DNA of 64,000 nt from a plasmid, in sequence record NZ_CP024444.1; one strand, 5' to 3'. A program made the translations under genes and the position numbers. Positions 1,106 to 27,967 of this stretch are shown piece after piece; the first letter of the stretch is position 1; each line of letters starts with the position of its first letter. The notes under the pieces are model-generated. The model was not told the origin of the DNA. It searched no databases and saw nothing but the letters and a program-made list of their open reading frames with translations.

Positions 1106-1133
1106 AATTTCTTATCCTAGAACAATCATAAGT

Positions 1134-4284: not shown

Positions 4285-4496
4285 AATCTTTCCTAAGAAG
4301 AAGATTTAAGATTAATGTTTTAAATGTCTACTATTACTACCCTGCAATACTGATTGGGTGATAAAAGCAAAGTTATTCTACAATAAACTTTCATACTGTG
4401 TCCTTGTTTTCAATTCCTAAAACCAAAGACTTTTGTTTGAAACCTCGCATCAATAAATTTTATTTCATTATAAACATATCAAATTATGAATTAAAT

Positions 4497-5478: not shown

Positions 5479-5479
5479 A

Positions 5480-8137: not shown

Positions 8138-8219
8138 GTTTCTACCCTCTATCGCTTAAAAAGTCGTAAGCTAATAATTATTAAAATATTTTCTATTAAT
8201 TCCTAAAATTAAAGTTAGC

Positions 8220-9512: not shown

Positions 9513-9531
9513 GAGTTTATCTCCCTATTTC

Positions 9532-10362
9532 CTAGCACTTAAGAGCTAAAGCATGATGCACAATATGTGCACGAATAAAGCTCGCAATGAAGTAATAACT
9601 ATGGTCGTAACCTTCTCTTAGGTTTAAAACTAAAGGGTGATCCATTTCAGTACATACTTTTCGTAGTCTTTCTGGTTGAAGTTGGCTATCAAGAAATTCA
9701 TCCCCTAAGCCTTGATCAACTAATAATGGAATTTTATGAATTGAATTCTTAACTAATTCAACAGTATCGTATTGTTTCCATGATTCCTGATCAGCTCCTA
9801 AATAAGCATTGAAAGCTTTTTGTCCCCAAGGAACTATGGATGGATTAACAATAGGCGAAAAAGCTGATACGCTCAGATATAATTCGGGATTACGTAAGGC
9901 AATCGTTAATGCCCCATGTCCTCCCATTGAATGACCACTAATACCGCGTTTTTGTGACGCAGGGAAATGAGCCTCAATTAGCGCTGGAAGTTCATGCACA
10001 ATATAATCATACATTTGAAAATGTGCAGCCCAAGGATCTTGAGTGGCATTCAGATAAAATCCAGCACCTTGACCGAGATCATATGCAGGATCGTCAGCTA
10101 CATTTTCTCCACGAGGGCTAGTATCTGGTGCAACAATAATAATTCCATGTTCAGCCGCATATTGTTGCGCTGCAGACTTCGTAATAAAATTTTGTTCTGT
10201 GCAGGTAAGACCACTGAGCCAGTACAGTACTGGTAATTTATCTTGATGCACCTGAGGAGGCAGATAAATAGCAAATTTCATCATGCATCCGAGTACTTCA
10301 GATTTATGTTGATAAACGTCTTGCCAACCACCAAACATTGCATGATGTTCAACACGATCCAT
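9532..10362 (-). CDS. fghA: S-formylglutathione hydrolase (esterase D family)
   Basis: 276 aa with the GHSMGGHGAL serine-hydrolase motif and esterase D/FrmB architecture. It lies next to frmA/gfa. Confidence 0.85.
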   Translation of the reverse strand: MDRVEHHAMFGGWQDVYQHKSEVLGCMMKFAIYLPPQVHQDKLPVLYWLSGLTCTEQNFITKSAAQQYAAEHGIIIVAPDTSPRGENVADDPAYDLGQGAGFYLNATQDPWAAHFQMYDYIVHELPALIEAHFPASQKRGISGHSMGGHGALTIALRNPELYLSVSAFSPIVNPSIVPWGQKAFNAYLGADQESWKQYDTVELVKNSIHKIPLLVDQGLGDEFLDSQLQPERLRKVCTEMDHPLVLNLREGYDHSYYFIASFIRAHIVHHALALKC

Positions 10363-10435
10363 ATCGTTTTCCTTATTACAAAAAAGTTGTGATCTCCCTT
10401 TATTTTTAGAGAGGTCTTGTTTGTCGTTAAAATGA

Positions 10436-11770
10436 TTATTTTTCTGGTATTACATCACTATGCTTTTGTCTAATCTTTCGCATTGTCCACCAAATAGAAA
10501 ACATCACTAACGGTACTAATATCGCAATTGTGAATTCAGGCGCTGCTATATCATGAACTGAAGGTATACCTTTCACTAAATATGCAAGTAAACTAACAAC
10601 ATAATAAGAAATCGCAGCAACGGATAAACCCTCTACCGTTTGTTGAAGGTGTAATTGTTGTCTAGCACGATTATTCATTGATGTGAGCAAATCTCGATTT
10701 TGACGCTCTAACTCAACATCGATCCATGAACGCAAAAGAGAAATAGCACGTGTTAATTTTTCAGAAAGAGTAGCTTGGCGTTCTTTAACAGATTGACATG
10801 TCCTCATCGCTGGAGCGATACGACGCTCAAGAAAGTCGTGCCATGTGCAATATCCAGATATAGACTTTTCTGAAAGTCTATTCAAACGTTCTTCAACGAG
10901 TTCATAATAAGCACGACTGGCGCCAAATCGGTAAAGATTCGCTGCCACATTGGCTTCTAGTTCAGTTGCAAGCGTCGTAAGTTCAAATAGCAGTACATCA
11001 TTATCACGTCTTAATTCTGTTCCTTTATTCATTTCATCAGTGATCGCGGCAAGCCGTAGCTCCATCTGACGTAGTTCAAAGGTCATTGTTCGAATTAATG
11101 GCAAAGCAAGTAATGCCAATGTTCGATATGTTTCAATCTCTAATAAACTTTGAGCAAGTGCGCCTGCACGAGCCTCTGTCAAACCACGATCAAGAATAAG
11201 AATCCGGGTCAGACCGTCATTATCTTGTCTGAAATCAGTCAAAATAGCTGCTGTTTCATTTTCTACTAGTGAATAGCACAAACTGACTGTATCAAAACGA
11301 TTTACCAATTTTTCAGATTCAGTAGCCCATGGCAATACTTGCAAGCAGATACCTGAGATAATTTCACCTGGTGGAACAAAGCCATTTTTAAATGGATCTT
11401 CACCTTTAGGCAATCCCGTTGGTACATCTAGTTCTGCACACCAAAGATATGTGGAAAATTCTGTGTGTTTTTCACAATGCAAATTTCCTTCATCCCAAGT
11501 CAAACCATGAAGTGGTGATTCTTCTTTTTGAGTTTTTTTCAAGCCAAAGCGATCTGATAGTTCATCCAGCGCAATTTGGTCCTTGCTTGGATCTCCCTCT
11601 GTCAAGAAAGCTAACTGCAATAAGTTTCGTGGAGCTTGTATTAATAAAGGTGGACGGGCATGTACCTCTCCCACAGCCCTCACTCGATCTGCATGTGCTG
11701 GCATACCATATACAAATGCAGTCGAGGAAGTTTGTGGGGTCGTTTTGATAGCGGGTTCTTCTTTCATCAC
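10436..11770 (-). CDS. hypothetical membrane-anchored protein embedded in the formaldehyde-detoxification cluster
   Basis: 444 aa with two C-terminal transmembrane helices. It sits between gfa and fghA on the same strand, and I recognise no family. Confidence 0.5.
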   Translation of the reverse strand: MMKEEPAIKTTPQTSSTAFVYGMPAHADRVRAVGEVHARPPLLIQAPRNLLQLAFLTEGDPSKDQIALDELSDRFGLKKTQKEESPLHGLTWDEGNLHCEKHTEFSTYLWCAELDVPTGLPKGEDPFKNGFVPPGEIISGICLQVLPWATESEKLVNRFDTVSLCYSLVENETAAILTDFRQDNDGLTRILILDRGLTEARAGALAQSLLEIETYRTLALLALPLIRTMTFELRQMELRLAAITDEMNKGTELRRDNDVLLFELTTLATELEANVAANLYRFGASRAYYELVEERLNRLSEKSISGYCTWHDFLERRIAPAMRTCQSVKERQATLSEKLTRAISLLRSWIDVELERQNRDLLTSMNNRARQQLHLQQTVEGLSVAAISYYVVSLLAYLVKGIPSVHDIAAPEFTIAILVPLVMFSIWWTMRKIRQKHSDVIPEK

Positions 11771-11801
11771 GACCTCAGTTTTTCAAGTTTAATAAAGAGA
11801 A

Positions 11802-12380
11802 TTAAGCTTCTTTATACGTTCCTTTCTGCTTAGCTGAATGTGTAGCTAAAGCATCCATTAAGCCCGGTGACAAACAATCATAAGGTTCAAGTTTAAGTTC
11901 ACGTAAACGATTGCGGATAGCATCCATATTTGATGGAGGAGTTCCACTTTCAATCACAGACGAAACAAAAGCTGCAAAACCAGGAGCAGACCATCCTTCT
12001 TGTGGAGAAAGCTCCGTATGAACAAAGTCTAAACCGTAGAATGCATGATCTTTATTTTCGATACGACCAAAAAGGTGCGCTCCACATTCACGACATGCGT
12101 GACGTTGAATTGCAGCATTCTCATCAACAATATGAAGCTTTTGTGGATTTGCTACAACGCTTACTTTGTCACGTGGTACAACTGCAATTACAGCGAACGT
12201 AGCACCTTCTGGTTTCCAGCATTTAGTACATCCACAAGCATGGTTATGCAATGTTTGAGCACCAACCTCAACTTGAACTTTATCCGTTGAGCATAGACAT
12301 TCTAAGATTCCACCGTCGAAGTTTTCTTGGCTTGGACGGATCCCATGATCAAGAGAAGGGTGTATATGAATTTCGCTCAT
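11802..12380 (-). CDS. gfa: glutathione-dependent formaldehyde-activating enzyme (S-hydroxymethylglutathione synthase)
   Basis: The Cys-rich Gfa fold (CLCS...CGCTKC...CRECG) is present. I moved the start to MSEIHIHP at 12380, which has an RBS. The ORF track extends it 15 codons further upstream. Confidence 0.8.
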
Positions 12381-12455
12381 TTTACTTTCCTTAAGATGAA
12401 TTGATCGACATGGTGTGAAATTCACACCATGGATTTTTAATATGAGATTAGTTAA

Positions 12456-13577
<1,122 letters not shown>

Positions 13578-13623
13578 TTAGACCAAATGTAGTTTTTGGC
13601 ACCGAACATCAAGTCGGTGCTGA

Positions 13624-13899
13624 TTAACGAAGATACGATCTAACGATAGAAATAGTTTCGTCAATTGACTTTCTTTGAGAGTTAGTTCTAGTTTCATTAT
13701 CTGGAAATTCTTCTCGCAAATAACTTTCTAGTACAACCGCCATTAAACCATTTACAGCCCCACGGACTGCGGCTAGCTGATGAAGAATTACACCACACTC
13801 AGTACCTTCATCAAGTGCCTGCTCAAGAGCAGCGACTTGTCCTTTGATACGTCTAACACGAGTAAGCGCTTGTTTCTTCTCACGATCATTGTATGGCAT
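13624..13899 (-). CDS. frmR: FrmR-type formaldehyde-responsive repressor (CsoR/RcnR family)
   Basis: 91 aa reading ...RVRRIKGQVAALEQALDEGTECGVILHQLAAVRGAVNGL, the CsoR/RcnR/FrmR helix bundle. It is the first gene of the operon. Confidence 0.85.
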   Translation of the reverse strand: MPYNDREKKQALTRVRRIKGQVAALEQALDEGTECGVILHQLAAVRGAVNGLMAVVLESYLREEFPDNETRTNSQRKSIDETISIVRSYLR

Positions 13900-14109
13900 A
13901 TATTCAACCTTCTCTCATTTAGATTTAGTCATCATACTATACTCTCTTATCGTTAAACTCATAATACTATACCCCCCCATGGTATAAAAGGGGTAAATTA
14001 AAAATAATTAATATTTTTTGAAGAAAATTATCTTTTAGTTATACTATTGCTTTGCATAATTAATTTAATATTATTAAAAATCAGTAATTTAGTAAAAAAA
14101 TATTAAAAA

Positions 14110-15359
14110 GAAACCTTTGCACGAATAAACACACAAAAGTTCATTAAATTGGTATAATACAATAAAATCAATCACCTAGCAAAAAACACGACTATGGCAT
14201 GGAAACAAACAGGGCAACTCTCCCTAGCAGACAGTCTCATTAACGCTCACAAAGCCATCGAAGAATTAGATGAACTACACAACCTAATTGACTGGCAAAC
14301 TATCGAGCAAACCTTACGCCACGTTCATAGCAGTGAGCGTGGGGAATCTGCCTTTCACCCTGTCATCATGTTTAAAGTATTACTCTTACAAAAACTCTAT
14401 AACCTATCGGATCCAGCCATGGAAAAACAACTGGCACGAGACTTACTATTTCGTCGCTTTGTTGGCCTATCATTAACGGATGATGTACCCGACCATAGCA
14501 CCATTTGGCGATACCACAAACACCTAGGTGAGCTTAGACTGATTGAACCATTGTTCAACCAAATCAATGAGCAACTAGCCCAACAAAACATTTTTATCAA
14601 AGCGGGCAGTGTCAGCATCATCGATGCCAGTATCGTTGAAGCTAAAAACAAACGACCTAAGAAAGGCAAACACACCGACAATACCCAAGATAACGAAGCC
14701 GCCTATGTCAGTAAAAAAGACAGTACAGGTAAAGTAAAAACCACCTACGGCTTTAAAATTCATCTCAACTGTGATGAAGACAGCTTTGTCAAAAAGGTTG
14801 AAACTACCCCTGCCAATGTCCATGATTCCCAATGTTTTACCACGCTGTTAACAGATGATGAATCAGCCGTGTATGCTGACAGTGCGTATAAAAGCCAAGC
14901 CCATGATGACTACCTTGCCGAGCATGAACCACCGATAAAAAATCATATTCATGATAGAGCATGGCGCAATACACCCTTAACCGAACAGCAAAAACGCAAT
15001 AATACCCAAAAGAGCCAAACTAGAAACACCGTTGAGCGGGTCTTTGGACATTTTAAACTGCATTATGGGATGAGCAAAGCTCGTCATTTAGGGTTAATGC
15101 AATTTCATACCAGCACTTTGCTTGCAAGCATGGTGCATAATTTAAAAACTGCCCTAAGCTTGAAACGAAAATACGGACTCGCCTAGGGTTATTGTGTCTG
15201 TTGGTTAGTAAGCTCAGCCAATAGACACAAATTTAACAACCATTTGGAGATTTTATCCATGATTTAGCCATTGTTTTGCTTATTTCATTGCCATTCTTTG
15301 TTTTTTTTCGGTTTGGTGGTATGCCTCGAGCAAAGGGGCTGTTTCGTGCAAAGGTCTCA
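14110..15359 (+). mobile_element. IS5-family insertion sequence
   Basis: Inverted repeats GAAACCTTTGCACGAA at 14110-14125 and TTCGTGCAAAGGTCTC at 15344-15359 match 15 of 16 positions. They enclose a 330-aa IS5-type DDE transposase. Confidence 0.7.
14194..15186 (+). CDS. IS5-family DDE transposase
   Basis: 330 aa reading MAWKQTGQLSLADSLINAHK...ESAFHPVIMFKVLLLQKLYNLSD, which is typical of IS5/IS1182-like transposases. Confidence 0.75.
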   Translation: MAWKQTGQLSLADSLINAHKAIEELDELHNLIDWQTIEQTLRHVHSSERGESAFHPVIMFKVLLLQKLYNLSDPAMEKQLARDLLFRRFVGLSLTDDVPDHSTIWRYHKHLGELRLIEPLFNQINEQLAQQNIFIKAGSVSIIDASIVEAKNKRPKKGKHTDNTQDNEAAYVSKKDSTGKVKTTYGFKIHLNCDEDSFVKKVETTPANVHDSQCFTTLLTDDESAVYADSAYKSQAHDDYLAEHEPPIKNHIHDRAWRNTPLTEQQKRNNTQKSQTRNTVERVFGHFKLHYGMSKARHLGLMQFHTSTLLASMVHNLKTALSLKRKYGLA

Positions 15360-15628
15360 AAAATATATTTTTTAAAAAAAAGAAAATTTATATTAAATAT
15401 TCTTATATTAACACTTCTGTATATCAAATTATCTTTTAGCAAAAACACGCTTAAAAAATAAATAAATTAAATCAATAATTTATGTTAAAGTAAAAAAAAC
15501 CTAGTAATCAAACCGATTGTTAGAAAAGAATATTTCAATTGTTTAAATTAAAATCAATTAAAATAAAACCATGATACAAATTAATCTATCGAATTTACTT
15601 AATCATTTTCTTTTTAACTAGTATGCAT

Positions 15629-17200
15629 TCAACTTGAATAATTCTTCATAAACAAATTAAAATCCATGACTTGCTGCTGCTCTAACACTTCTTGCTCAAG
15701 AAGAGACTTTTGTGCAACTGATTCAAAAAATTGTTTACGCTCATCCGTCAAAACCTGTTTCGAAAAGTTATTCAAATGTTGCTGGCATTGATGTAAAGCG
15801 AAGTCATTAAAACCTATATTATGTTGAAACATATATGTTAAGACCTTAGAGGATGGCGTTAAGAATGAATTCTCAATTTTAGCCTGTTGAGCATATATAG
15901 CTTCTTTATGTTTATTAATATCATTTGCATGATCGAGTAAATTAGCTAGAGGTCTAATATTAGCCAACAACTCTTGAGCCCAATCATACATAGCAATTGA
16001 ACTATCTCCATTTTGGAGTTCTAAATTTGGCTTTCGCCCCTTTTCAGCCACAAGGTGAAAGTTATTATTCGCCTGATTAAGGCTATCTTGACTTAATGAT
16101 GGGCTTTTATATAAAGCACAAAATAATAAAAATGCATCCAAAAAGTAAGCTTGCTCTAAATCAATTCCTAACGAAGAAAAAGGATTAATGTCCAAACAAC
16201 GTATCTCGACATACTGTACCCCACGTGCATTTAATGCATGAAGCACACGCTCACCAGAATATGGAACTCGTTTTGGTCTAATATTTGAATAATATTCATT
16301 TTCTATTTGCAAAATATTAGTATTAAGTTGCACCCATTCGTTATTTTTATGGGTACCAATATTCGTATACAAGGGGTAAGGTGTTTCTAAAGCCTCTTTT
16401 ATACTATGAATGTATGAATTGAGACTATCAAAACAAGGAGAGATAGTAGATTGTGCACTACTTTGATAACCAATCTTACTCATTCGAAGACTAGTCGCAT
16501 AAGGCAAGTAGTAAGTGTCATTATCAAATTTTTTAAATTGATCTAAGTTTTTTTTTAAAAAATTTGAATTAACCGCTGGGGATGCTCCGAATAGATAAAT
16601 CAATAGCCAACTATAACGGTGAAAATTTCGTATCATATCCATATAAATTGATGACCGATCTTTATTTTCGAAAGTAGTTATATTATCTAGTTGGTATAAA
16701 AGCTGAATTAATTGCTCAGGTAATGAAAAATTATAGTGAATACCTGCTATACATTGCATGGCCCTACCATATCGAAGAGCTAATCCTTTTCGATAAACGT
16801 GTTTAAACTTACCAATATTTGAATTGCCATACTCAGCTATAGGAATCCTTTCTTCTTCTGGCAAAAGAGAAGGCATTGATGAACTCCAAAGGTATTCATT
16901 ATTTAGTTTTGTATAAACAAAACGATGAATATCATTAAGTTCTGCAAGGACCTCTGAAGCACTCAAACAAGGTGGCGTAACAAATTCCATTAATGATTCG
17001 GAATAGTCTGTAGTAATAAACTCATTTGTCAAAGCTGATCCTAGTGTTTTTGGATGCGGTGTAAGCACCAAATTCCCATTCTTCGTTACACGCAAACATT
17101 CACGTTCTATCCCTCGCAAACACATAGTCAATAAAGGTAAATTTTCACCTAGAATATTTAGACGATGAGTATAGTGTTCATCAAATATTAATTTATCCAT
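15629..17200 (-). CDS. gshA: glutamate--cysteine ligase (proteobacterial GshA type)
   Basis: 523 aa. The motif ERECLRV...HPKTLGSALTNEFITTDYSESLMEFVTPP matches the GshA N-terminus. It sits in an AT-rich island with atypical codon usage. Confidence 0.85.
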   Translation of the reverse strand: MDKLIFDEHYTHRLNILGENLPLLTMCLRGIERECLRVTKNGNLVLTPHPKTLGSALTNEFITTDYSESLMEFVTPPCLSASEVLAELNDIHRFVYTKLNNEYLWSSSMPSLLPEEERIPIAEYGNSNIGKFKHVYRKGLALRYGRAMQCIAGIHYNFSLPEQLIQLLYQLDNITTFENKDRSSIYMDMIRNFHRYSWLLIYLFGASPAVNSNFLKKNLDQFKKFDNDTYYLPYATSLRMSKIGYQSSAQSTISPCFDSLNSYIHSIKEALETPYPLYTNIGTHKNNEWVQLNTNILQIENEYYSNIRPKRVPYSGERVLHALNARGVQYVEIRCLDINPFSSLGIDLEQAYFLDAFLLFCALYKSPSLSQDSLNQANNNFHLVAEKGRKPNLELQNGDSSIAMYDWAQELLANIRPLANLLDHANDINKHKEAIYAQQAKIENSFLTPSSKVLTYMFQHNIGFNDFALHQCQQHLNNFSKQVLTDERKQFFESVAQKSLLEQEVLEQQQVMDFNLFMKNYSS

Positions 17201-17222
17201 ATATCAAACCTTACATTCAAAG

Positions 17223-17993
17223 TTAATGTGCACCATGAACTACCCTATTAATTAAAGTTACTATAAGAATTCCTATAAAAAGCCAAAGAATTTGGATAAT
17301 GGTATCTTTAGTTGTCCAACGCTGTTGTAATTGAGGAATTAGATCTGATAAAGACACATAAATAAAACTACTACTAGCCAAAATCATAAGGAAAGGTTGC
17401 CATTGCTGTAATCCGGCCAGTAGAAAATATCCACTTAATCCACCTAAAGCTGTCATTGCACCAGCCATAGTAAGCTTTAGTACAGCAGCACTACGATGAT
17501 TTTTCTGCCTAAGAACTACCAAATCACCCATATGATGAGGTACTTCATGTACAAGAACCGAAGCAGCTGCAATCAGCCCAAGATGTATGTCAACAATGAA
17601 AATTGAAGCAATCAAAATACCATCACCAAAACAATGGACTCCATCACCCAATAATAGTGACCAACCATTAGTTGTATGTGGCTCATGTGAATGATTATGC
17701 TCATGTCCGTGATGCCACAATTCAGCTTTATTAAGTAGAAAAAAGAAAACTAAACCAATTAGAAGTGCTAAAAAAAGTTGATGTGTATCTATATTGCTTT
17801 CAAAAGCCTCTGGTAACAAATGTGTAAAACTTGTTGCTAATAACGCACCAGCTGCTAGACCTAAAAAGCCTTGTTGTACATAACTATCTTGATTGTTAAT
17901 AGCTGCCCCAGCTCTCGTTACCAATAAGTCTGCGATCAAAACGCTACCTATTCCTACGACCAGAGTGACTAGGGTAATAATGAAAAGTGACAT
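17223..17993 (-). CDS. zupT: ZIP-family divalent metal transporter (ZupT-like)
   Basis: 256 aa and polytopic, with a His-rich loop (HGHEHNHSHEPH) and the ZIP signature HEVPHHMGD. Confidence 0.7.
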   Translation of the reverse strand: MSLFIITLVTLVVGIGSVLIADLLVTRAGAAINNQDSYVQQGFLGLAAGALLATSFTHLLPEAFESNIDTHQLFLALLIGLVFFFLLNKAELWHHGHEHNHSHEPHTTNGWSLLLGDGVHCFGDGILIASIFIVDIHLGLIAAASVLVHEVPHHMGDLVVLRQKNHRSAAVLKLTMAGAMTALGGLSGYFLLAGLQQWQPFLMILASSSFIYVSLSDLIPQLQQRWTTKDTIIQILWLFIGILIVTLINRVVHGAH

Positions 17994-18308
17994 AGATTTA
18001 ATACATACCTAGTAGACAATCATTTTTAACTAATCGCATATACAAGCCGAAATTCGTTCGATACAACATCAAATTTGTAGATGTTGTATTAAGCAATCTA
18101 ATATACTATACCCACCTATAGTATAAAAGGGATTTTATAAAAAAGTTTAAGCCACTCAACAATTAATAGGAAATTATTTTAAATTCAATTAAATAGATAC
18201 AAAAATCATGACATTCTTAATCAAATCTAGTCTATTGAGAAATTTTTATTTTTTACATTATACAAAAGAGCCTAAACAAAGGCCCTTTCATCACTATTCT
18301 CTGAGCTC

Positions 18309-18416
18309 TTAGTATGCTAATTGAATTAAGAATCTAAAAATTCCTGCAATAACCGCTAATGTAACTACACCAATTACCCAAAGTAAGATAAACCATCCTG
18401 TCTGTGAAAGTTTCAT
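18309..18416 (-). CDS. cydX: cytochrome bd oxidase small subunit CydX-like peptide (35 aa)
   Basis: This ORF is not in the track. ATG at 18414-18416, stop at 18309-18311, peptide MKLSQTGWFILLWVIGVVTLAVIAGIFRFLIQLAY with a single transmembrane helix. It lies 8 nt downstream of cydB on the same strand. Confidence 0.5.
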   Translation of the reverse strand: MKLSQTGWFILLWVIGVVTLAVIAGIFRFLIQLAY

Positions 18417-18424
18417 ACAAACTC

Positions 18425-19429
18425 CTAATGATAACCAGCATCACCAACACGAACTTTACCTTTAAAAATCCAATATGAAAAAATGGTATAAGTCAGAATA
18501 ATAGGAATGAGCAACAGTGCACCAATCAAAGCAAAAAGTTGACTATTCGCTGGGGCTGCAGCCTGCCAGATCGTTACTGAAGGTGGAATAATATAAGGCC
18601 ACAAACTAATTAAAAAACCTGTATAAGCAAGGAAGACTAAGCCTAACGTATAAATAAAAGGACTAAGTTCTTTCTTTTGTTTACATGCCCGTAAAGCCAT
18701 TCCCGTAAAAATAAGTACTAATACAGGAATTGGACTAAAGTACATTAACTGAGGCTGACTAAACCAGCGTTCAGCAATTTGCGGTTGTGAAAGTGGTGTA
18801 TAGATAGTAACTAATCCAAAAATAATAAATACTGAAATGATCAGTTTAGGCATCATTGAAAACATTTTTTCTTGAATTTCAGCATCAGTTTTATAAATTA
18901 ACCATCCACATCCTAAAGTTGCATACAGAACGACTACACCAATACCAGTAAACACAGAGAAAGGTGTCAACCAGTCCAACTGCCCACCAGCATAAACACC
19001 ATTTAAGGTTTTAATACCCTGAATATATGCACCTAGAACTACACCTTGAAGAAAACCTGCAAATACTGAACCACTAATAAAAGCTTTATCCCACAGATGC
19101 TTAGTACGGTTTGCTTTAAATCGGAATTCAAAAGCAACTCCACGAAATATTAATGCGATCACCATCAAAATAATCGGCATATAAAGTGCAGAAAGAACTG
19201 TTGAATAAACTAGCGGAAAGGCAGCAAAAAGCCCCGCCCCACCAAGCACCATCCAAGTTTCATTACCATCCCAGACCGGAGCAACGGTATTCATTAGCAC
19301 ATCTCGCTCATTGGAACCTTTAATGAAAGGAAATAAAATTCCGATACCTAAGTCAAACCCATCTAGAATGACATAAATCAATACACCAATTCCAATAATG
19401 ACAATCCAAATAAGAGATAAATCAATCAT
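18425..19429 (-). CDS. cydB: cytochrome bd ubiquinol oxidase subunit II
   Basis: 334 aa and polytopic, with CydB/CioB-type sequence. It overlaps the cydA remnant by 8 nt. Confidence 0.85.
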   Translation of the reverse strand: MIDLSLIWIVIIGIGVLIYVILDGFDLGIGILFPFIKGSNERDVLMNTVAPVWDGNETWMVLGGAGLFAAFPLVYSTVLSALYMPIILMVIALIFRGVAFEFRFKANRTKHLWDKAFISGSVFAGFLQGVVLGAYIQGIKTLNGVYAGGQLDWLTPFSVFTGIGVVVLYATLGCGWLIYKTDAEIQEKMFSMMPKLIISVFIIFGLVTIYTPLSQPQIAERWFSQPQLMYFSPIPVLVLIFTGMALRACKQKKELSPFIYTLGLVFLAYTGFLISLWPYIIPPSVTIWQAAAPANSQLFALIGALLLIPIILTYTIFSYWIFKGKVRVGDAGYH

Positions 19430-19898
19430 GGCGATTCTCCCGTATTGATTCTAGTTTATCTAAGCTTCCTTCAACCGCACTCATTGGTCGCATCGGTGTT
19501 TGACCAACATCAGCATGTTCGCCTGAATGTACACTTAAGAATTGCGGGCCTTTATGCATTAGCTTTAACATGTAATAAATGCCAATACCGAAAACTACAA
19601 AATAAACCAGAACAAAAATAATTAGAGTTATTCCAACTTGCGATGCGGATACGGGTGACAACGCATCTTTAGTACGAAGTACATTGTAAACAACCCAAGG
19701 TTGACGACCGACCTCTGTTGTAAACCAACCAGCTAGAAGAGCGATAAAACCTGACGGACCCATATATAATGCAAAACGTTGAAACCATTTACTTTCATAT
19801 AAACGGTCAGAACGACGCAGCCATAAGCCTAAGACGGCTAATAGCAGCATTAACATTCCCATACCAACCATGACACGGAAACTCCAAAAGATGATCAA
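19422..19898 (-). pseudogene. cydA: cytochrome bd oxidase subunit I, C-terminal fragment only (truncated by IS3-family insertion)
   Basis: The 158-aa ORF matches only the C-terminal helices of CydA. The N-terminal roughly 350 codons are missing, and an IS3-family left inverted repeat begins 20 bp upstream. Confidence 0.7.
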
Positions 19899-20011
19899 AG
19901 AATTCGGCCGATCTTCTGAACCGTCCTAGTTTTATCAGAGACAGGTTTACTTGAGTCAGGCAGCATAGCCTGACGGAATTAATGAACAATAGTACATATT
20001 TTCTGCATCTA

Positions 20012-21007
20012 CTACGAGCATAGCTCTCCGTCTTGCACTCGGGCGAAGCAGTGCTTCGCTAATCCTCGTTCAGGCGATACATATCCATTGGTAGAATGCA
20101 ATCGTTCATAGTTGTACCAGTGTACCCAATCAAGGGTTGCTAGCGCAACATCATTTACGCCATCCCATTCCTGTTTCAAATAATCAATCACCTCCGCTTT
20201 ATATAGCCCATTCACGCTTTCAGCTAGGGCATTATCTGAGCGAGGAAATAGCGAAGCACTGCTTCGCCCGGGTGCAAGACGTAGGGCTATGCCCGAAGTG
20301 GAGTCACCAGTTGTACCAACCGATGCAGCAAGCCCCGATTGTTTAAGCCGTTCACCGTACTTAATCGATAGATACTGACTACCTTTATCAGAATGATGAA
20401 TTACCCCGCTTGGTCTACCTCTAGCGTCTAAGGCTTGATTTAGGGCATCTAAGACCAGCTGAGTGTCCATATGATTCGATACTTTCCAACCCACAATAAC
20501 TCGCTTAAATACGTCAATCACAAAGGCAGTATAGACCCAACCTGATTTAGTTTTAATGTAGGTAAAATCAGCGACCTGAGGAGCACTGCTCCGCAAGAGT
20601 CTTTTCTTGTTTGGGGCATCGGCAGTAAAGTTGCGTTTAACAAGGTCATTCGGCTTGTCTTGGTCGTCTCTCTGCTTCGTGGTGATTTTGCCTTTGCCTC
20701 GCCATACGCCTTGTATGCCAAGCTGTTTCATTAAGCGTTCAACGGTGCAACGAGCAAGCTTTGGCAAACCCTCTTGTTTGAGCTTGTGCCAAACTTTACG
20801 AATGCCATAGCGACAGCCACTGGCTTGCCAAATCTGTTTGATTTGTGCCATGAGGTGTTTGTCGCTTTGTTTGCGTCGACTTTGCTTTTCTGGGTTGTCT
20901 TGTTCATCTTTGATGCGATAGTAGGTGGATGGGGCAATTGGCAGGATTTTGCAAATCGGCTCGACCCCATATTTTTCTTTTTCATCATCAATGAATTTGA
21001 CCATCAC
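20012..21007 (-). CDS. IS3-family transposase OrfB (DDE integrase core), possibly disrupted
   Basis: 331 aa with a DDE/rve core (HSDKGSQY...). The C-terminal region carries two inverted copies of a 30-bp palindrome-containing element at 20028-20058 and 20249-20280, which lengthen and alter the conserved end. Confidence 0.6.
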   Translation of the reverse strand: MMVKFIDDEKEKYGVEPICKILPIAPSTYYRIKDEQDNPEKQSRRKQSDKHLMAQIKQIWQASGCRYGIRKVWHKLKQEGLPKLARCTVERLMKQLGIQGVWRGKGKITTKQRDDQDKPNDLVKRNFTADAPNKKRLLRSSAPQVADFTYIKTKSGWVYTAFVIDVFKRVIVGWKVSNHMDTQLVLDALNQALDARGRPSGVIHHSDKGSQYLSIKYGERLKQSGLAASVGTTGDSTSGIALRLAPGRSSASLFPRSDNALAESVNGLYKAEVIDYLKQEWDGVNDVALATLDWVHWYNYERLHSTNGYVSPERGLAKHCFARVQDGELCS

Positions 21008-21321
21008 TTGGGTTTGCGGTCGAGCTCCGCCTGGGCTTCAATACCGGCTGCCTTGCGAATGATTTCGTTCGCTTGTTTGAGTTCTCTGATTTCTCGCTCA
21101 AGCTCAGCGATACGAGCCGCTTGGCTTTCAGTGCTTATAGTCACAGGATTTTGCTTAGCTAGGTGCTTTTGATGCCATGAGCGTAGGGTTTCAGGGGTAC
21201 ACCCGAATTTGGGGGCGATGGCTTGGATGGCCGCCCACAGTGAGGGATAATCTTTTTGTGATTCAATCAGTAATTCGACGGCTCTACTCTTAACTTCTGT
21301 TGGGTATTGTTTGCTTTTCAT
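21004..21321 (-). CDS. IS3-family transposase OrfA (HTH)
   Basis: 105 aa with an HTH domain and a leucine-zipper-like C-terminus, overlapping orfB. Confidence 0.7.
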   Translation of the reverse strand: MKSKQYPTEVKSRAVELLIESQKDYPSLWAAIQAIAPKFGCTPETLRSWHQKHLAKQNPVTISTESQAARIAELEREIRELKQANEIIRKAAGIEAQAELDRKPK

Positions 21322-21728
21322 AAGGGTATTGTCTCAGAGTTTTAGGTCTCCGACAATCCCGGGACGGTTCACTTTTGGTCGTCAAGTTTTAAAAGACTTA
21401 GTTTGTAAAAGCTCATTATTAGGAGATTTAGCTCTAAAGAAGAAAGTACATGAACACTTATTTAAGTTTTTAGAAAATACTATTAATTCTCTTTATAATC
21501 CAGATGCATATAAAGATAGTAGAATCGATATGGTATTTAAGGAAAAAGGCTTTACAATACGTAACAATATTTTAAGTTCAGATGTAAGACAAGATTTTAA
21601 TAAAAAAAATTTTTCTGACCCAATTCACAAAATTTTTAAAGATATTGGAATTTTTTAAAGTTATAGATGCAACTCTAACCTTATAACTTTAATTGTATAA
21701 GGTTAGTAGATAGCGCATTATATATTTA

Positions 21729-22710
21729 ACCCCACTCTCAACACTTTTAGAGGGGGTTGAAACAAAAAAGGCATGAACTTAAACTTTAATCAATGACCAA
21801 AAAGATTAGAGGATAAGCCATGCCCATTGATGAATTTATCATTAAAATCTATCTAATGGTAGATGACTACTACAAAAAGATTGTAACAAACCGGCTAAGA
21901 CAAGGCGGATATGCACCAAAGCTAACCGACAGTGAAATTATCACCATGGAGATAGTGGGTGAGTTTTTACAGATGGACACCGATTCACAAATCCATCAGT
22001 ATTTTAAACAGCATTGGCAAACATGGTTTCCACAAATAGGCTCATATCCCAACTTTGCCAAGCAGTGCGTCAATTTGTTACAGGTAAAAACTTTGATACA
22101 ACAGCATATCGTTAAACAGCATGGGCAAGACAACATTCATTTTATTGATGGCTTTCCCATTCCGGTGTGTCAATATGCCAGAGCCTATCGGCATAAAACC
22201 TTCGAATATGAAGGTAGCTATAGTTACTGTGCCTCAAAGCAACAAAAATATTTTGGCTTTGAAGGACATTTACTCATTAATCTATCGGGCATGATAACCA
22301 ATTTTACCTTTGCCTCTGCTAAGATAGATGAAAGGCTTGTTGCACCTGATATGCTTGATAATATCAAAGGCTTGTTAGGTGCAGATATGGGCTATATTAG
22401 CCCTGATTTATCTGAGTATTGCTTTAAGCGATGTGTTGATTTGCAAACACCGCTTAGAAAAAATATGCCCGATAAACGACCAATCAGTGTACTTAATCGT
22501 CTTAAAAATTCTCGTCGCAATATTGAGACGGTGATTGGTCAGTTATCACAGCGGTTTAATATGCAAAAGGTGAGAGCGAGAGATTTATGGCATTTATCCC
22601 ACAGATTTATGCGTAAAATCTTGGCTCATAACGTTTGCTTTGTGATCAATAAACAGTTAGGTAATCCCCCACTTCAGTTTGAGTTGCTTATTTCAAGTTG
22701 AGAGTGGGGT
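21729..22710 (+). mobile_element. IS982-family insertion sequence, copy 2 (direct orientation relative to copy 1)
   Basis: It has the same inverted repeats (ACCCCACTCTCAAC ... GTTGAGAGTGGGGT) and transposase as copy 1. Confidence 0.75.
21820..22701 (+). CDS. IS982-family DDE transposase
   Basis: 293 aa and near-identical to the transposase at 4588-5469. Confidence 0.75.
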   Translation: MPIDEFIIKIYLMVDDYYKKIVTNRLRQGGYAPKLTDSEIITMEIVGEFLQMDTDSQIHQYFKQHWQTWFPQIGSYPNFAKQCVNLLQVKTLIQQHIVKQHGQDNIHFIDGFPIPVCQYARAYRHKTFEYEGSYSYCASKQQKYFGFEGHLLINLSGMITNFTFASAKIDERLVAPDMLDNIKGLLGADMGYISPDLSEYCFKRCVDLQTPLRKNMPDKRPISVLNRLKNSRRNIETVIGQLSQRFNMQKVRARDLWHLSHRFMRKILAHNVCFVINKQLGNPPLQFELLISS

Positions 22711-22906
22711 ATTAAATAGAAAAAATAAAGAAACTCTAAAATATTGGTAAAATTAAAAACCTAAACCTAGTCTTTCATCTTTATTACCAAAACAACCCAC
22801 ATCTAATTATTATCCAAACCCCATATATCACGTCATGCAATCGCTAAAATTTGGTTTGGTCTAATGGCTAATGTGATTAATTTATAGAGGCTTTTTTAAA
22901 TTTATT

Positions 22907-23550
22907 TACGCTCAAATCGGTTTTTATACGTTATTTGCCATTTTCTTACGCTCAAATCGGTTTTTATACGTTATTTGCCATTTTCTTACGCTCAAATCGG
23001 TTTTTATACGTTATTTGCCATTTTCTTACGCTCAAACCCATTTTTATACGTTATTTGCCGTTTTCTTACGCTCAAACCCATTTTTATACGTTATTTGCCG
23101 TTTTCTTACGCTCAAACCCATTTTTATACGTTATTTACCATTTTCTTACGCTCAAACCCATTTTTATACGTTATTTACCATTTTCTTACGCTCAAACCCA
23201 TTTTTATACGTTATTTGCCATTTTCTTACGCTCAAACCCATTTTTATACGTTATTTACCATTTTCTTACGCTCAAACCCATTTTTATACGTTATTTGCCA
23301 TTTTCTTACGCTCAAACCCATTTTTATACGTTATTTACCATTTTCTTACGCTCAAACCCATTTTTATACGTTATTTGCCATTTTCTTACGCTCAAACCCA
23401 TTTTTATACGTTATTTGCCGTTTTCTTACGCTCAAACCCATTTTTATACGTTATTTGCCATTTTCTTACGCTCAAATCGGTTTTTATACGTTATTTACCG
23501 TTTTCTTACGCTCAAACCCATTTTTATACGTTATTTGCCGTTTTCTTACG
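22907..23550. repeat. tandem array of about 16 copies of a 40-bp repeat (TTACGCTCAAAYCSRTTTTTATACGTTATTTRCCRTTTTC)
   Basis: Direct reading shows perfect head-to-tail 40-bp periodicity with a few variant positions (ATCGG/ACCCA, GCCA/GCCG/ACCA) and no intervening unique sequence. The three long ORFs in the track here are artefacts of translating the repeat. Confidence 0.9.
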
Positions 23551-24021
23551 TTCTTGAAGGACTTAATCATATCTCTATATTTTCATCCAAGTTTTCATGT
23601 ATCTTGGCGTTGAATTCGCTTAAAGGAAGTTTTCTGTTTCTAGCTTATGAAGTTCTCGCCTTTCTTACCAAAACATACTGAATTTTTTTATTAATAGCTA
23701 ATGTCAGATGCGCTCTAAGCTCGATGGTTGGGCAATCTTCACTTGAAATGTCATTAATGCTTTTTAAAATTTCAGTTTTTTAAAAATAGGTTCTGACAAT
23801 AACTGCTTCATCCCAAAAATTTAATAAGAATTTCTTGAGTAACGGGAGATAGACAATTTTTTATCACGGTTTGCGCCGCTTCTGCCCTATATGTAATGCC
23901 CTATATTTAACTTTTGAAATAGCGATAGCTTGATTTAGGTTTTGTCCAGCCAAAAACCGCAGGACTTTTATTCTGTCGCCTTATGGCGACAACGATTCGG
24001 GTTTTTGGGCTGTTGGGCTAA

Positions 24022-24333
24022 TTAAGGTTTATTGCTTTCCTTATTTTTCACTTTTTCGCGATTGGCTTTTATCCTATCAACCGATTTTTTAGTTTCATTA
24101 TCAAGTTGTGGTGCGGTGTTACCAACGGTTTGTAAATCAACTTTTAGTCGAATATTTTGGATATGTCGCTCTCGATTTTGGTTTTGTACATCGGCTTGAT
24201 GAAAAAATGCTTGGATAAAAAGCAAGGTCAAGCTAAAGACAAAAGCAAAAAGAAAGATACCGTTACGGACTTCTTTTAGTGTGCCTTTGGCTTTGTCGCC
24301 AATTTCTAACTTAAAGTTATTTGATAGTTTCAT
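24022..24333 (-). CDS. small single-TM membrane protein (last unit of the array)
   Basis: 103 aa, preceded by a degenerate copy of the conserved promoter/leader module at 24340-24480. Confidence 0.5.
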   Translation of the reverse strand: MKLSNNFKLEIGDKAKGTLKEVRNGIFLFAFVFSLTLLFIQAFFHQADVQNQNRERHIQNIRLKVDLQTVGNTAPQLDNETKKSVDRIKANREKVKNKESNKP

Positions 24334-26902: not shown

Positions 26903-27799
26903 TTAAGCGGCTATGGGTTGTTTCTTCTGCGACCAATTTTCTAAGATGTAATTAACTGCTTTTTGGGCGTCCGCTGAAGCTTTGAAGATGGCGCGTTTGT
27001 CAGCTTTTAGCACTTGTAACCATGATTTTAAATAGCTTGCATGGTTGGTTAGTGTGGTTTCTAAGCATCCCATTTCAGCGCATAAAAAGCTTGCGCCTAG
27101 TTCTGCTACAAGTTCCTCCCGAGCGTATGCGGTATCACCGAATTTTTTACCGTATTGGCGGTTTAATCGTTTTTCTGCACCCGTGCTGTGGACTAGCTCA
27201 TGTCCAAGCGTCGCAAACTGTTCATCTAGGTTTACAAAGTCGCTTGCATTCGGCATGCATATCGTATCGATGTAGGGTTTATAACAAGCTGAATTGTAAC
27301 CGTATTCAATTTTTACGTCGGTATTTGCAAAGATGGTTTTTGCGGTTTCATTCTCTGCAATGGGTGTTAACGTTTCGTCTTCATCAGGGGTGATTGCGCT
27401 AATATCGCCATCCATTTGGCTAATGTTAAACACACAAAAACTATTTAAAAATGGGATGGTTTCGATGTCACCCTCTTTGTTTTCTTTCTCAATGACATTG
27501 TAATATGCTAGGCGTACCGATTTTGCACCTTTTTTAACCTGTAAGTTTTTGGCTTGGGCTTGCTTGTAGGTCATCCATACATTGTATTTATAATCGCTGT
27601 TAATCATGGCTTTGGCTAAGATTAGACGATTAACGCCTTTGTAGAGTTCACCTGTTGAGCCATTGACGCCACCGAAAATGTTGGTAACCGGACGGGTTTT
27701 CCAGCCTTTTTTCCATTGTGGTAAATCAGTTTCAAGAAGTTCAATCATTGCATTGGTTACTTCTTGGTACATATCGATTTTAGTAGCTGATTTTGTCAT
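26903..27799 (-). CDS. ardC: ArdC-like antirestriction protein (N-terminal ssDNA-binding domain plus zincin-like metalloprotease domain)
   Basis: N-terminus MTKSATKIDMYQEVTNAMIELLETDLPQWKKGW and the HExxH motif (LGHELVHSTGAE) match ArdC. The true start is the ATG at 27797-27799, which follows an AAAAGGA RBS. The ORF track extends upstream through the leader. Confidence 0.8.
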   Translation of the reverse strand: MTKSATKIDMYQEVTNAMIELLETDLPQWKKGWKTRPVTNIFGGVNGSTGELYKGVNRLILAKAMINSDYKYNVWMTYKQAQAKNLQVKKGAKSVRLAYYNVIEKENKEGDIETIPFLNSFCVFNISQMDGDISAITPDEDETLTPIAENETAKTIFANTDVKIEYGYNSACYKPYIDTICMPNASDFVNLDEQFATLGHELVHSTGAEKRLNRQYGKKFGDTAYAREELVAELGASFLCAEMGCLETTLTNHASYLKSWLQVLKADKRAIFKASADAQKAVNYILENWSQKKQPIAA

Positions 27800-27967
27800 G
27801 ATGTCGTTTCCTTTTGGTTGGGTGTTGGAATTGAGCCTATCTCGTTTCCATGTGTTTATAATAACGGTTTTAGCGTGTATAGTCAAGCGGTTTAACCGTG
27901 TATTTTATGCATTTTCCGACGAACGGTAAAACCGTGTATCTTCAGATGCCGGACACACAACCCAATA

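Follow-up and report, generated by a model that had tools for sequence, protein, structure and literature searches.

In conjugation, the choice of the DNA to be exported is usually credited to the relaxase, the accessory proteins and the coupling protein. The oriT of the IncN plasmids R46/pCU1 contains thirteen 11-bp repeats, and RP4 has a bent TraK region. Where direct-repeat arrays and intrinsic bends adjoin oriT, they are binding sites for accessory or partition proteins with a modulating effect on transfer (PMC3098194, PMC5675868, PMC4949242, PMC12421886). The stbDRs of plasmid R388, two sets of five 9-bp repeats with an 11-bp period that extend over ~110 bp and overlap the stb promoter, lie beside oriT at the junction of the maintenance/establishment and transfer genes and act in cis through the plasmid-encoded StbA, affecting both segregation and conjugation (PMC3098194). 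The Aux2 TGTGCAT repeats of pLS20 and the TcpK boxes of pCW3 are short repeats or bends near nic, and such repeated or bent DNA binds auxiliary relaxosome proteins, raising transfer efficiency (PMC5675868, PMC6137059). The type II parC sites of R1 and pSK41, which work with ParR and ParM, consist of direct repeats in tandem that precede an operon for an actin-like ATPase (PMC2241845, PMC5016525); in R1, the relaxase is also stimulated by ParM and ParR, which in addition bind to the coupling protein (PMC4949242), and ParR of NAH7 is a partition protein linked to the modulation of transfer (PMC12421886). Tandem direct repeats of ~20 bp are also present in Moraxellaceae plasmids as the Rep_3 iterons of small Acinetobacter, Psychrobacter and Moraxella plasmids (SPHINX/BMMF-like), which are 22 bp long, occur in 3-6.5 copies and immediately precede rep (PMC10378824).

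The window analysed here (64,000 nucleotides of sequence record NZ_CP024444.1) belongs to a megaplasmid of Moraxella osloensis that is of the Dot/Icm type (MPF_I) and a relative of pMOXF1; it contains, at 22907..23550 (no strand assigned), a non-coding tandem array of ~640 bp composed of sixteen 40-bp units, or 32 boxes of the form TTTTYWTACG. Tandem Repeats Finder delimited the array to 22906-23550 with a period of 40, 16.1 copies, 96% matches, 0% indels and a score of 1136, and a unit table drawn up from the window sequence placed all 16 units in exact 40-bp register. The initial annotation had described sixteen perfect tandem copies of an AT-rich unit whose variants were limited to three positions; the register is indeed perfect and the unit is AT-rich (32.5% G+C), but the sequence is not uniform, with 96% identity and five unit types, and the three variable spots comprise five columns (11, 13 and 14, which co-vary as ACCCA or ATCGG, and 31 and 34, which vary independently). 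The boxes alternate between TTTTCTTACG and TTTTTATACG with a period of 20 bp, two kinds of variable 10-bp spacer lying between them; the true period is 20 bp and each 40-bp unit is a diverged dimer. A degenerate first box, TTTATTTACG, was read from the sequence at the start of the array (22897..22906, no strand assigned) and is the same in all megaplasmid contigs. The 10-bp box TTTTYWTACG occurs 34 times in the window against 1.7 expected, 32 times in the array at strict 20-bp spacing and twice elsewhere, and the 30-nt core of the unit occurs 16 times, always inside the array, with 0.00 expected by chance; apart from the two chance-level boxes, no dispersed copies of the unit or the box were found in the window or the rest of pMOXF1. 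The array is predicted to be the most curved DNA of the window (15.2 deg/turn versus 8.4+-1.0 for window tiles, an estimate made with approximate wedge parameters), and its A-tract phasing exceeds that of 99% of periodic shuffles. A 40-bp unit had been equated with four helical turns that set successive copies on the same DNA face, which holds only approximately: at 10.5 bp per turn the unit corresponds to 3.8 turns, so successive boxes rotate slowly round the helix and do not all lie on one face.

Conservation within the array was assessed by aligning 114 units from 20 loci, of which 34 were distinct. The 15 variable columns fall into two blocks, leaving invariant runs of 11 and 10 columns, and clustering of this kind has a probability of P ~6e-5 under random placement. 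Several identities that a tandem array might have were rejected. A CRISPR, already discounted in the initial annotation, does not fit contiguous units whose 10-bp spacers are a few recurring variants, without unique spacers and without cas genes; the only cas-related gene is a TnpB gene 39 kb from the array. As for a repeat-containing protein, all three plus-strand frames of the array are uninterrupted in the window, with ORFs of 248, 212 and 180 aa, because the T-rich unit has no stop codons; the pMOXF1 units, however, carry TGA, which closes the long frames and leaves ORFs of only 46-122 aa, and no ORF is conserved. Tandem promoters were rejected in view of the lack of sigma70-like sites inside the array, and single-stranded promoter or priming hairpins (Frpo/ssi type) on account of folding z-scores of -0.06 and -0.53 for the two strands, shuffled sequence folding equally well. 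No Rfam family or tRNA matched at the array.

In the ancestral layout, the array occupies a 1.4-kb gap between an inward-pointing 40-kb ssb/ArdC cassette block and the outward-pointing dotD-dotC-dotB-icmT-parM operon, and this gap is the expected position of oriT. To the right of the array, a flank of ~80 bp (23551..23631, no strand assigned) travels with it, being conserved at 79% beside the array on a small MbeA/NikA plasmid (L010; 78.8% over 165 bp by blastn, last units included). It is followed by a unique spacer (23632..24021, no strand assigned; 97-99% identical in related contigs), which contains a 3' cassette motif (23919-23934) and leads to the last gene of the leading-type cassette block, encoding a 103-aa predicted membrane protein and pointing toward the array (24022..24333, minus strand). 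The block also contains an ArdC-like gene (26903..27886, minus strand; ArdcN and zincin peptidase domains, Pfam PF08401 and PF18818), whose presence identifies it as of the leading-region type, and, in the same orientation, the gene of SSB, a leading-region marker (43714..44271, minus strand; Pfam PF00436, 114 bits). All 27 operator-bearing cassettes, ArdC and SSB among them, lie on one strand and point toward the array, and the co-oriented gene array of the initial annotation indeed starts, at 24022; their 16-bp operator is present in 27 copies, none of them in the array. The genes nearest the array encode a membrane protein and small acidic proteins, which are not DNA binders; an XRE-type HTH protein is also encoded in the neighbourhood (25525-26001).

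To the left of the array, 192 bp (22715..22906, no strand assigned) are what is left of the intergenic region that preceded dotD ancestrally; related contigs match them at 97-100% identity. A 13-bp motif, TAATGTGATTAAT (22869..22881, plus strand), lies 25 bp from the array and is unique in the window, with 0.28 occurrences expected; its significance is marginal. Beyond this flank is an 18.2-kb composite transposon (4498..22714, plus strand) with an IS982-family copy at each end and a 7-bp target duplication, ATTAAAT; pMOXF1 aligns on both sides of the insertion. The transposon is absent from pMOXF1 and contigs L020-L029 and, in the window, has come between the array and the dotD operon; while foreign to the array system, it alters the layout of that system. 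The IS982 copy noted beside the array is genuine (transposase at 21820-22701; NF033520, 248 bits versus a cutoff of 130) and is the end of this transposon inserted in the original intergenic region. The T4BSS operon begins with a DotD/TraH-like lipoprotein gene pointing away from the array (3748..4284, minus strand; Pfam PF16816), followed on the minus strand by genes for DotC/TraI-like (2450-3748) and DotB/TraJ-like ATPase (1134-2453) proteins, with matches to Pfam PF16932 and PF00437, and by an IcmT/TraK-like gene (833-1105, a weak NCBIfam IcmT_TraK match). A ParM was said to be encoded on this replicon and is present inside the T4BSS operon, as the N-terminal 255 aa of an actin-like ParM/ALP whose gene leaves the window at its start (3..767, minus strand; 100% identical to pMOXF1 QCR87162 by tblastn); the full-length pMOXF1 protein matches Pfam ALP_N, ParM (ParM_N) and StbA_N.

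In pMOXF1 the array is located at 202.5 kb, 0.5-0.9 kb upstream of dotD (ancestral distance ~490 bp), and the operon dotD-dotC-dotB-icmT-parM-x-dotM-topA departs from its other side, x being an orphan of 443 aa without a Pfam or NCBIfam match. The Pfam search of 20 large pMOXF1 proteins identified DotM, a coupling protein, two Rep_3-like initiators, a peptidase and an adhesin. Beside the coupling protein, an orphan of 1069 aa is encoded (pMOXF1 92071-95280), a candidate for relaxase activity. All ten independent contigs encoding an identical 103-aa neighbour carry the array at that site. Their arrays contain 16, 14, 11, 9, at least 9 (9 full units and a partial one at the contig end) and at least 9 units in differing order, although most of these contigs are short-read assemblies in which copy numbers are unreliable; the 16 units of the window are the largest number seen, despite the 18-kb insertion toward dotD. 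In a more distant M. bovis plasmid (DotC 45% identical) the gene layout matches and the ALP gene is kept, the protein encoded after parM having 351 aa. The equivalent gap of that plasmid contains ~8 imperfect AAAACTATGATGTTTTT boxes at multiples of ~20 bp, 170-400 bp upstream of dotD, which are unrelated in sequence to the TTTTYWTACG boxes but alike in their 20-bp phasing and equivalent in site; in PLSDB this repeat region matched only itself. In Yersinia and Acinetobacter plasmids the ALP gene is likewise linked to dotD-dotC-dotB, and the Yersinia gene cluster includes a separate ParA locus flanked by its own 11-bp repeats; these relatives are too distant for a comparison of the repeats.

Units of the array are also present on two small Rep_3 plasmids, one of the MobA/MobL and one of the MbeA/NikA type, where they separate the oriT region from the relaxase genes, some of the units being identical to megaplasmid units at 40 of 40 positions. 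On the MobA/MobL plasmids (eight assemblies), the units lie between orf265, whose start the array abuts, and the MobA/MobL relaxase gene; orf265 belongs to a nearly orphan family that has no name. The 13-mer TAATGTGATTAAT recurs 34 bp from the array in the MobA plasmids, the array being inverted relative to the motif there, and a conserved long inverted repeat with GTTTCT...AGAAAC arms is situated between the array and mobA; this repeat is only weakly similar to the MOBQ consensus (PMC3832669). Siblings of the MobA plasmid that lack the array (L033, pSKB0120-8 and the DOX410 plasmid) keep the inverted-repeat oriT core, for which the array is dispensable. On the MbeA/NikA plasmid, the units lie upstream of NikA-like and MbeA-like relaxase genes, and one full unit is identical to a megaplasmid unit (40/40) beside a unique flank that is only 79% identical. 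In both captures, which are the only two independent ones, relaxase genes lie next to the array, their orientation being the same and their distance similar; since such tiny plasmids have two or three intergenic regions, this adjacency to mob genes is statistically weak. The small plasmids keep separate 22-bp Rep_3 iterons, and no homologue of their Mob proteins was found on the megaplasmid by tblastn. When the megaplasmid flanks were compared with those of the small plasmids and of the M. bovis plasmid, similarity was restricted to the 13-17-bp motif and the 80-bp right flank.

When compared with the described systems, the array resembles the stbDRs in consisting of direct repeats at a maintenance/establishment-transfer gene junction, but it comprises 32 boxes with a 20-bp period over 640 bp and has no promoter signal, and no StbA-like or TraK homologue was found among the proteins scanned, which represent part of the plasmid proteome. 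The repeats of R388 also occur in other promoters, whereas the boxes of the array have no dispersed copies; sharing with mobilisable plasmids is not described for the stbDRs. Both parC and the array probably wrap into a superhelical nucleoprotein complex; however, the repeats of the array are more numerous by a factor of three to eight, a search for a ParR-like gene was negative, and the ALP gene is here embedded in a Dot/Icm-type operon with a linkage kept across genera, 3.9 kb from the array in pMOXF1 (22 kb in the window) with dotD, dotC, dotB and icmT between them. The sites of oriT accessory proteins comprise 2-13 short repeats in 100-200 bp and serve one relaxosome each, whereas the same long, ordered array accompanies three unrelated DNA-processing modules, those of two hitcher plasmids and of one poorly characterised Dot/Icm-type megaplasmid family.

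With slightly less than even confidence, we interpret the array as a non-coding, cis-acting protein-binding platform at or beside oriT, perhaps acting as a centromere too. That it is a cis-acting site, as first proposed, is supported by the invariance of the boxes while the spacers vary, by its conserved position in related contigs and by its sharing with other plasmids. Among the options then listed, the evidence most favours an oriT-proximal element, the array lying at the boundary of the leading-type and T4SS genes on the megaplasmid and adjoining two unrelated relaxase families on the small plasmids; relaxase or accessory genes are adjacent on the small plasmids and not on the megaplasmid. 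In plasmid F, the leading genes point to the oriT end. The leading-type cassettes point toward the array, which places oriT at that end, as in F. Leading-region genes (ssb and anti-restriction genes) are generally transcribed from the T-strand toward oriT (PMC11541004). Against the reading stand the small number of captures, the dispensability of the array for the MobA-type oriT core, the inversion of the array relative to the 13-bp motif between contexts, the 18-kb transposon that parts the array from the T4SS operon in the window and the lack of DNA binders among the products of the nearest genes. No convincing nic-like inverted repeat was found in the megaplasmid flanks, and no relaxase was identified on the megaplasmid by tblastn with both small-plasmid relaxases and accessory proteins or by a 3-His motif scan, nor by Pfam among the 20 large pMOXF1 proteins; MOB-suite typed pMOXF1 and the M. 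bovis plasmid as non-mobilizable, and conjugative DNA transfer of the megaplasmid is therefore only putative.

Mechanistically, a DNA-binding protein encoded by the megaplasmid would polymerise along the boxes, a ribbon-helix-helix or StbA/TraK-like factor being compatible with the geometry, and the resulting nucleoprotein filament or solenoid would make the adjacent nic region accessible to the coupling protein and to the T4SS. Candidate binders are three pMOXF1 proteins of the Arc/RHH family (QCR87105, QCR87106 and QCR87132), the 443-aa orphan encoded after the ALP and the XRE-type protein. The actin-like ATPase of the T4SS operon may assist, in which case the site would serve positioning and transfer, and small plasmids that captured the array beside their own oriT would join the same complex and be mobilised more efficiently. 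That two small mobilisable plasmids, unrelated to each other, have taken up the same array points to a docking site used in common for conjugation. A stronger form of this proposal, which we regard as unlikely, makes the array a portable docking array or transfer centromere that does not depend on the relaxase; once coated by a megaplasmid protein, it would, together with the ALP, deliver the adjacent oriT to the channel. Plasmids with unrelated relaxases (MobA/MobL, MbeA) would become efficient hitchers by capturing it, and the specificity for the helper would reside in a DNA repeat and not in the relaxase or the accessory proteins. A docking or positioning site would locate oriT in this plasmid family, provide a sequence marker for the small plasmids that a helper moves and make the link now emerging between partition and conjugation accessible to study. 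Moraxella osloensis is frequently encountered on skin and in the built environment, and pMOXF1 carries msr(E)/mph(E), which makes its transfer biology relevant to the spread of resistance.

A pure parC-like centromere for the ParM/ALP, with an adaptor coating the repeats, ALP filaments pushing plasmids apart, the small plasmids hitch-hiking and no role in transfer, is unlikely. The ALP gene is on the replicon, in an operon with the array in its upstream region, and the M. bovis relative retains both the gene and 20-bp-phased boxes. The period of the pSK41 parC is 20 bp, like that of the array. The arrangement resembles that of type II centromeres, whose tandem repeats precede the par operon (PMC5016525, PMC2241845), and the transposon insertion would be harmless, as a centromere acts at any distance. 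However, the array is not directly upstream of parM, from which four T4SS genes separate it, and it contains no promoter-like site. Behind parM there is no small gene for an RHH ParR-like protein but one for the 443-aa orphan, a possible novel adaptor. As for the partition centromere of the initial annotation, ParM is thus present, while two defining features, repeats immediately upstream of parM and a ParR-like gene after it, are lacking. The linkage of the ALP gene to dotD-dotC-dotB in Yersinia and Acinetobacter, together with the separate ParA locus of Yersinia, suggests that the ALP is part of the T4SS module; ParAB are already encoded beside a Rep gene in pMOXF1, and both captures by small multicopy plasmids adjoin relaxase genes in the same orientation at a similar distance.

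A homology patch or selfish minisatellite without a specific binder, which would expand and contract by slippage and unequal crossing-over, spread between co-resident plasmids by recombination and perhaps promote RecA-dependent cointegrates and passive conduction of small plasmids, is an improbable identity for the array. Such an element would account for the free variation of copy number and unit order between plasmids with near-identical flanks, for identical unit types on large and small plasmids, for an orientation that differs with context and for the dispensability of the array in sibling plasmids, and the products of the nearest genes are membrane or acidic proteins rather than DNA binders. 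Variation is nevertheless confined to the spacers, the two boxes of 10-11 bp being invariant in all 34 unit types; the unit shared with the MbeA/NikA plasmid is far better conserved than its flank; the array was never lost from its megaplasmid site in the ten contigs; the diverged M. bovis plasmid has the same phasing and site with unrelated boxes; and the A-tracts are phased beyond what periodicity alone confers in the shuffles.

Distinctly improbable is a role in transcriptional control, in which a curved upstream element or operator array would silence or activate the T4SS operon through a plasmid regulator or nucleoid protein, and small plasmids would copy it to synchronise mob expression with the helper. 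Curved AT-rich DNA is the classic target of H-NS-type silencing. The array is upstream of dotD in pMOXF1, as are the M. bovis boxes, and upstream of the mob genes on the small plasmids, where it abuts the orf265 start; in NAH7, ParB-type repeats activate transfer genes (PMC12421886). The array has no promoter-like sites, however, and is kept at full length in the window though an 18-kb transposon separates it from dotD; the evident regulon of the plasmid uses the different 16-bp operator of the cassettes, and the boxes have no dispersed copies on the plasmid.

Replication-origin iterons, as proposed in the initial annotation, or a copy-control (handcuffing) array for a megaplasmid initiator are extremely improbable: the 20-bp sub-period of direct repeats approximates iteron length, the region is AT-rich and pMOXF1 encodes three Rep-like proteins, but their genes (at 7.1, 69.8 and 134.5 kb) lie 54-133 kb from the array on the full replicon, where ParAB adjoins a Rep gene more than 50 kb away, the array-bearing small plasmids own separate iterons, one-mismatch DnaA boxes number 19 against 20 expected in the window without a cluster (just one, at 22810, is near the array), and the array is located between transfer and leading-type genes.

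The box pair was also searched for more widely. A scan of viral contigs gave 0 matches, and a scan of genome representatives gave one, on a small plasmid contig whose assignment to a 'Bacteroidales' bin is probably wrong.

The array (window 22906-23550) was returned by Tandem Repeats Finder with a period of 40, 16.1 copies, 96% matches, 0 indels and a score of 1136, and its in-register reading comprises 16 units of five sequence types. The 16 perfect tandem copies of the initial annotation thus stand as regards number and register but not as regards sequence, and the differences, previously placed at three positions, fall in five columns, of which 11, 13 and 14 co-vary (ACCCA versus ATCGG) and 31 and 34 are independent. 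The AT-rich character of the 40-bp unit (G+C = 32.5%) and the placement of the array between an IS982 copy and a gene array were both confirmed (IS982-family transposase at 21820-22701; co-oriented genes from 24022). All 16 occurrences of a 30-nt core in the 64-kb window lie in the array, versus 0 expected by chance. Each unit is a diverged dimer whose TTTTYWTACG box is alternately TTTTCTTACG and TTTTTATACG, giving 32 copies at a spacing of exactly 20 bp, while the remainder of the window holds two matches to this box versus 1.7 expected by chance.

For column analysis, units from 20 loci were pooled using a filter that demanded TACG together with close similarity to one box, yielding 114 units (34 distinct); when the large, well-assembled arrays were read off 40 bp at a time, the same units emerged, with nothing dropped there. 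The 15 variable columns of this pool form two blocks corresponding to both spacers, and the boxes correspond to invariant runs of 11 and 10 columns (P ~ 6e-5 under random placement of the 15 variable columns). Two B-type 20-bp halves follow one another in the small-plasmid array of contig L011, confirming that 20 bp is the basic module. Using a wedge model, curvature was predicted to be 15.2 degrees per helical turn for the array versus 8.4 ± 1.0 for the other 644-bp tiles, the highest value in the window and one reached by 1% of periodicity-preserving permutations. Successive copies had been expected to lie on the same DNA face; however, 20 bp corresponds to 1.9 turns at 10.5 bp per turn, so that successive boxes rotate by ~34 degrees. 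No sigma70-like sites were found within the array, folding of either strand was no better than that of shuffled sequence (z = -0.06 and -0.53), and no Rfam family or tRNA matched at the array. The box/spacer pattern, phasing, predicted curvature and positional conservation argue for a platform for sequence-specific protein binding that would act as double-stranded DNA.

The sole PLSDB match was pMOXF1 (CP040258.1, 248 kb, Moraxella osloensis), to which window 1-4497 is 99.4% identical and with which collinearity returns from 22715. The intervening 18.2 kb (4498-22714), absent from pMOXF1, constitute a composite transposon with two same-orientation IS982-family copies (4588-5469 and 21820-22701; 93% identical to each other) and inverted repeats ACCCCACTCTCAAC / GTTGAGAGTGGGGT; the duplicated target is the 7-bp ATTAAAT. 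Among the genes carried are a UvrA paralogue, gshA, genes for glutathione-dependent detoxification of formaldehyde (S-formylglutathione hydrolase, class III ADH) and one for a ZupT-like transporter, along with an IS5 element and a cytochrome bd operon cut short by an IS3-family element, within which an ALIL frameshifting pseudoknot was detected (Rfam RF01497, 81.7 bits; 20930-21046, minus strand). The pre-insertion array site is a 1.4-kb intergenic region with a different neighbourhood on each side. On the left, transcription of the dotD-dotC-dotB-icmT-parM-x-dotM-topA operon runs away from the array; this operon encodes DotD, DotC/TraI, a DotB-type ATPase, an IcmT/TraK-like protein, an actin-like ParM protein (ALP; window 3-767, minus strand; pMOXF1 197469-198548), a 443-aa orphan, DotM and topoisomerase I. 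The earlier proposal of a ParR/ParM centromere agrees with the ALP gene and the 20-bp phasing, but parM is not adjacent to the array and a ParR-like gene is absent, and a pure ParM-type centromere is considered rather unlikely. Linkage of an ALP gene to a Dot/Icm operon recurs on M. bovis, Yersinia pseudotuberculosis IP31758 and Acinetobacter pittii plasmids (L017, L018, L019), and suggests that the ALP is part of the T4SS module and not of a classical par locus.

Within the megaplasmid lineage, the array was compared across ten contigs, mostly short-read assemblies, that encode the 103-aa neighbour, a widespread predicted membrane protein (window 24022-24333, minus strand). There are 16 units in the window, 14 in L029, 11 in pMOXF1, 9 in L020, at least 9 in both L026 (9 full and a partial) and L027, which reach contig ends, and 3, 3 and 1 in three short-read assemblies where the array has probably collapsed. 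In every contig spanning the gap the array occupies the identical site, and since the flanks are 97-100% identical while copy number varies, unit number and order turn over quickly, whereas the array as such and its boxes are kept. A coding repeat was rejected, as the long plus-strand ORFs of the window are not conserved and the pMOXF1 units carry TGA, leaving short ORFs only. In a diverged relative, the M. bovis plasmid NZ_CP087831 (DotC 45% identical), the megaplasmid layout recurs (RecT/ssb cassette array, gap, dotD-dotC, ParM, DotM, topoisomerase), and the gap contains ~8 imperfect AAAACTATGATGTTTTT boxes (L016, 14098-14335) with spacings of 20, 20, 41, 61 and 62 bp. In phasing and position these boxes correspond to the 40-bp array, to which their sequence is unrelated. 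Copy-number turnover would fit a recombination-driven minisatellite or homology patch; this explanation is nevertheless quite improbable, as neither the box-specific conservation nor the analogous M. bovis boxes fit it.

To the right of the array lie ~40 kb of minus-strand cassettes, all transcribed toward it, including those for ArdC (26903-27886, minus strand) and SSB (43714-44271, minus strand). An operator-like motif, AAGCGGTTTAACCGTG, is present in 27 copies on one strand between 24420 and 61835, with none further left in the window. It contains the palindrome CGGTT-T-AACCG, usually occurs as a 23-bp tandem pair including TATAAT, and precedes nearly every small gene of this block, in which a 3' motif, TTAGCGATAGCTTGAT, also occurs 12 times. 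The block thus forms a ~40-kb cassette-like regulon, consistent with a giant leading or anti-defence region that has one regulator. That the array itself serves transcriptional control is very doubtful, given that this regulon uses a different operator and that the array has stayed complete even after the 18-kb insertion. A direct repeat, GCCCTATAT(gtaat)GCCCTATAT (23885-23915), closely follows the last cassette gene, and CCCTATA-type motifs resembling it follow other cassettes, for example in L026.

Core-pattern scans matched eight metagenome contigs and one genome contig. Eight of the nine (seven metagenome contigs and the contig from the genome scan) are small Rep_3 plasmids in which 3-8 units, adjoining a conserved long inverted repeat, lie between an orphan gene (orf265/267) and a MobA/MobL relaxase gene. 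One of these, a 3.7-kb contig labelled 'Bacteroidales bacterium Barb4' (L015), is probably a mis-binned Moraxellaceae plasmid, since its Rep is closest to Psychrobacter RepM. The ninth match (L010) is a different small Rep_3 plasmid, whose array precedes NikA-like and MbeA-like relaxase genes by ~300 bp and is accompanied by ~80 bp homologous to window 23551-23631 (79% identity). In both plasmid types the array is oriented alike with respect to the relaxase operon and lies 250-310 bp from it, and certain unit types of the large plasmids match those of the small ones at 40/40 positions; no homologue of the small-plasmid Mob proteins or of orf265 was found on the window or pMOXF1. An aligned sibling (L033, 1912-2199) keeps the inverted-repeat oriT core and mobA and has no array, and the array is likewise missing from two further Moraxella MobA plasmids (L034, L035), arguing that it is an acquired add-on beside oriT and does not belong to the core MOBQ-type oriT. 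A replication-origin iteron set, as initially proposed, is extremely improbable, the array-bearing MobA/MobL plasmids having separate 22-bp iterons, every Rep gene of pMOXF1 (like its ParAB locus) lying 54-133 kb from the array, and a DnaA-box cluster being absent.

In leading regions, the orientation of ssb and anti-defence genes allows them to be transcribed from the transferred strand (PMC11541004). Such transcription implies that leading genes point toward oriT and that the transfer genes opposite point away. Plasmid F has that layout, and the array lies exactly at the boundary of the leading-type cassettes and the T4SS operon. This location, and the fact that two plasmids whose relaxases are unrelated have independently captured the array next to their oriT, point to a function in DNA processing or delivery during conjugation, not in replication. 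We favour an oriT-adjacent accessory array that would nucleate a large nucleoprotein complex on being bound by a megaplasmid-encoded factor, and that the small plasmids may exploit. Such helper/hitcher sharing of a DNA array suggests a hypothesis on substrate recruitment for transfer that is directly testable. Counting against the oriT reading, no nic site, relaxase or array-binding protein was found on the megaplasmid, and in MOB-suite typing both pMOXF1 and the M. bovis plasmid come out as non-mobilizable. Its further weaknesses are that the independent captures number only two, on tiny plasmids with few intergenic regions, that the megaplasmid and the small MobA plasmids share a 13-bp motif, TAATGTGATTAAT, relative to which the array is inverted from one context to the other, and that most comparison assemblies are of short-read origin.

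A dual centromere and transfer role is plausible, because the ALP is embedded in the T4SS operon in several genera and links between partition and transfer have been published: for stbDRs/StbA of R388 (PMC3098194), for ParM/ParR of R1, which stimulate the relaxase and bind the coupling protein (PMC4949242), and for ParR of NAH7, which binds oriT (PMC12421886). No description of the array was found in the searchable literature; its closest functional analogues are the R388 stbDRs, parC-type centromeres and the accessory-protein repeats or bends of oriT regions. It differs from these in scale (32 boxes over 640 bp), in period (20/40 bp) and in its occurrence within a Dot/Icm-type plasmid family without a recognised relaxase, and chiefly in that one array is common to three unrelated mobilisation backbones.

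pMOXF1 encodes a coupling protein, and immediately upstream of its gene lies a 1069-aa orphan, a candidate for a novel relaxase; the candidates for repeat binding are three Arc/ribbon-helix-helix family genes (regions 92071-98238, 124740-126045 and 151693-152703; L005, L006 and L002). Many large proteins of its T4SS region are without a Pfam match. A TnpB gene (IS200/IS605 accessory, Cas12f-like TNB domain) is located at 62143-63249 (minus strand) of the window, with several TnpB copies on pMOXF1, and is followed by tandem repeats of 102 bp and 46 bp (63365-63608) containing the palindrome TTGCGTTAACGCAA.
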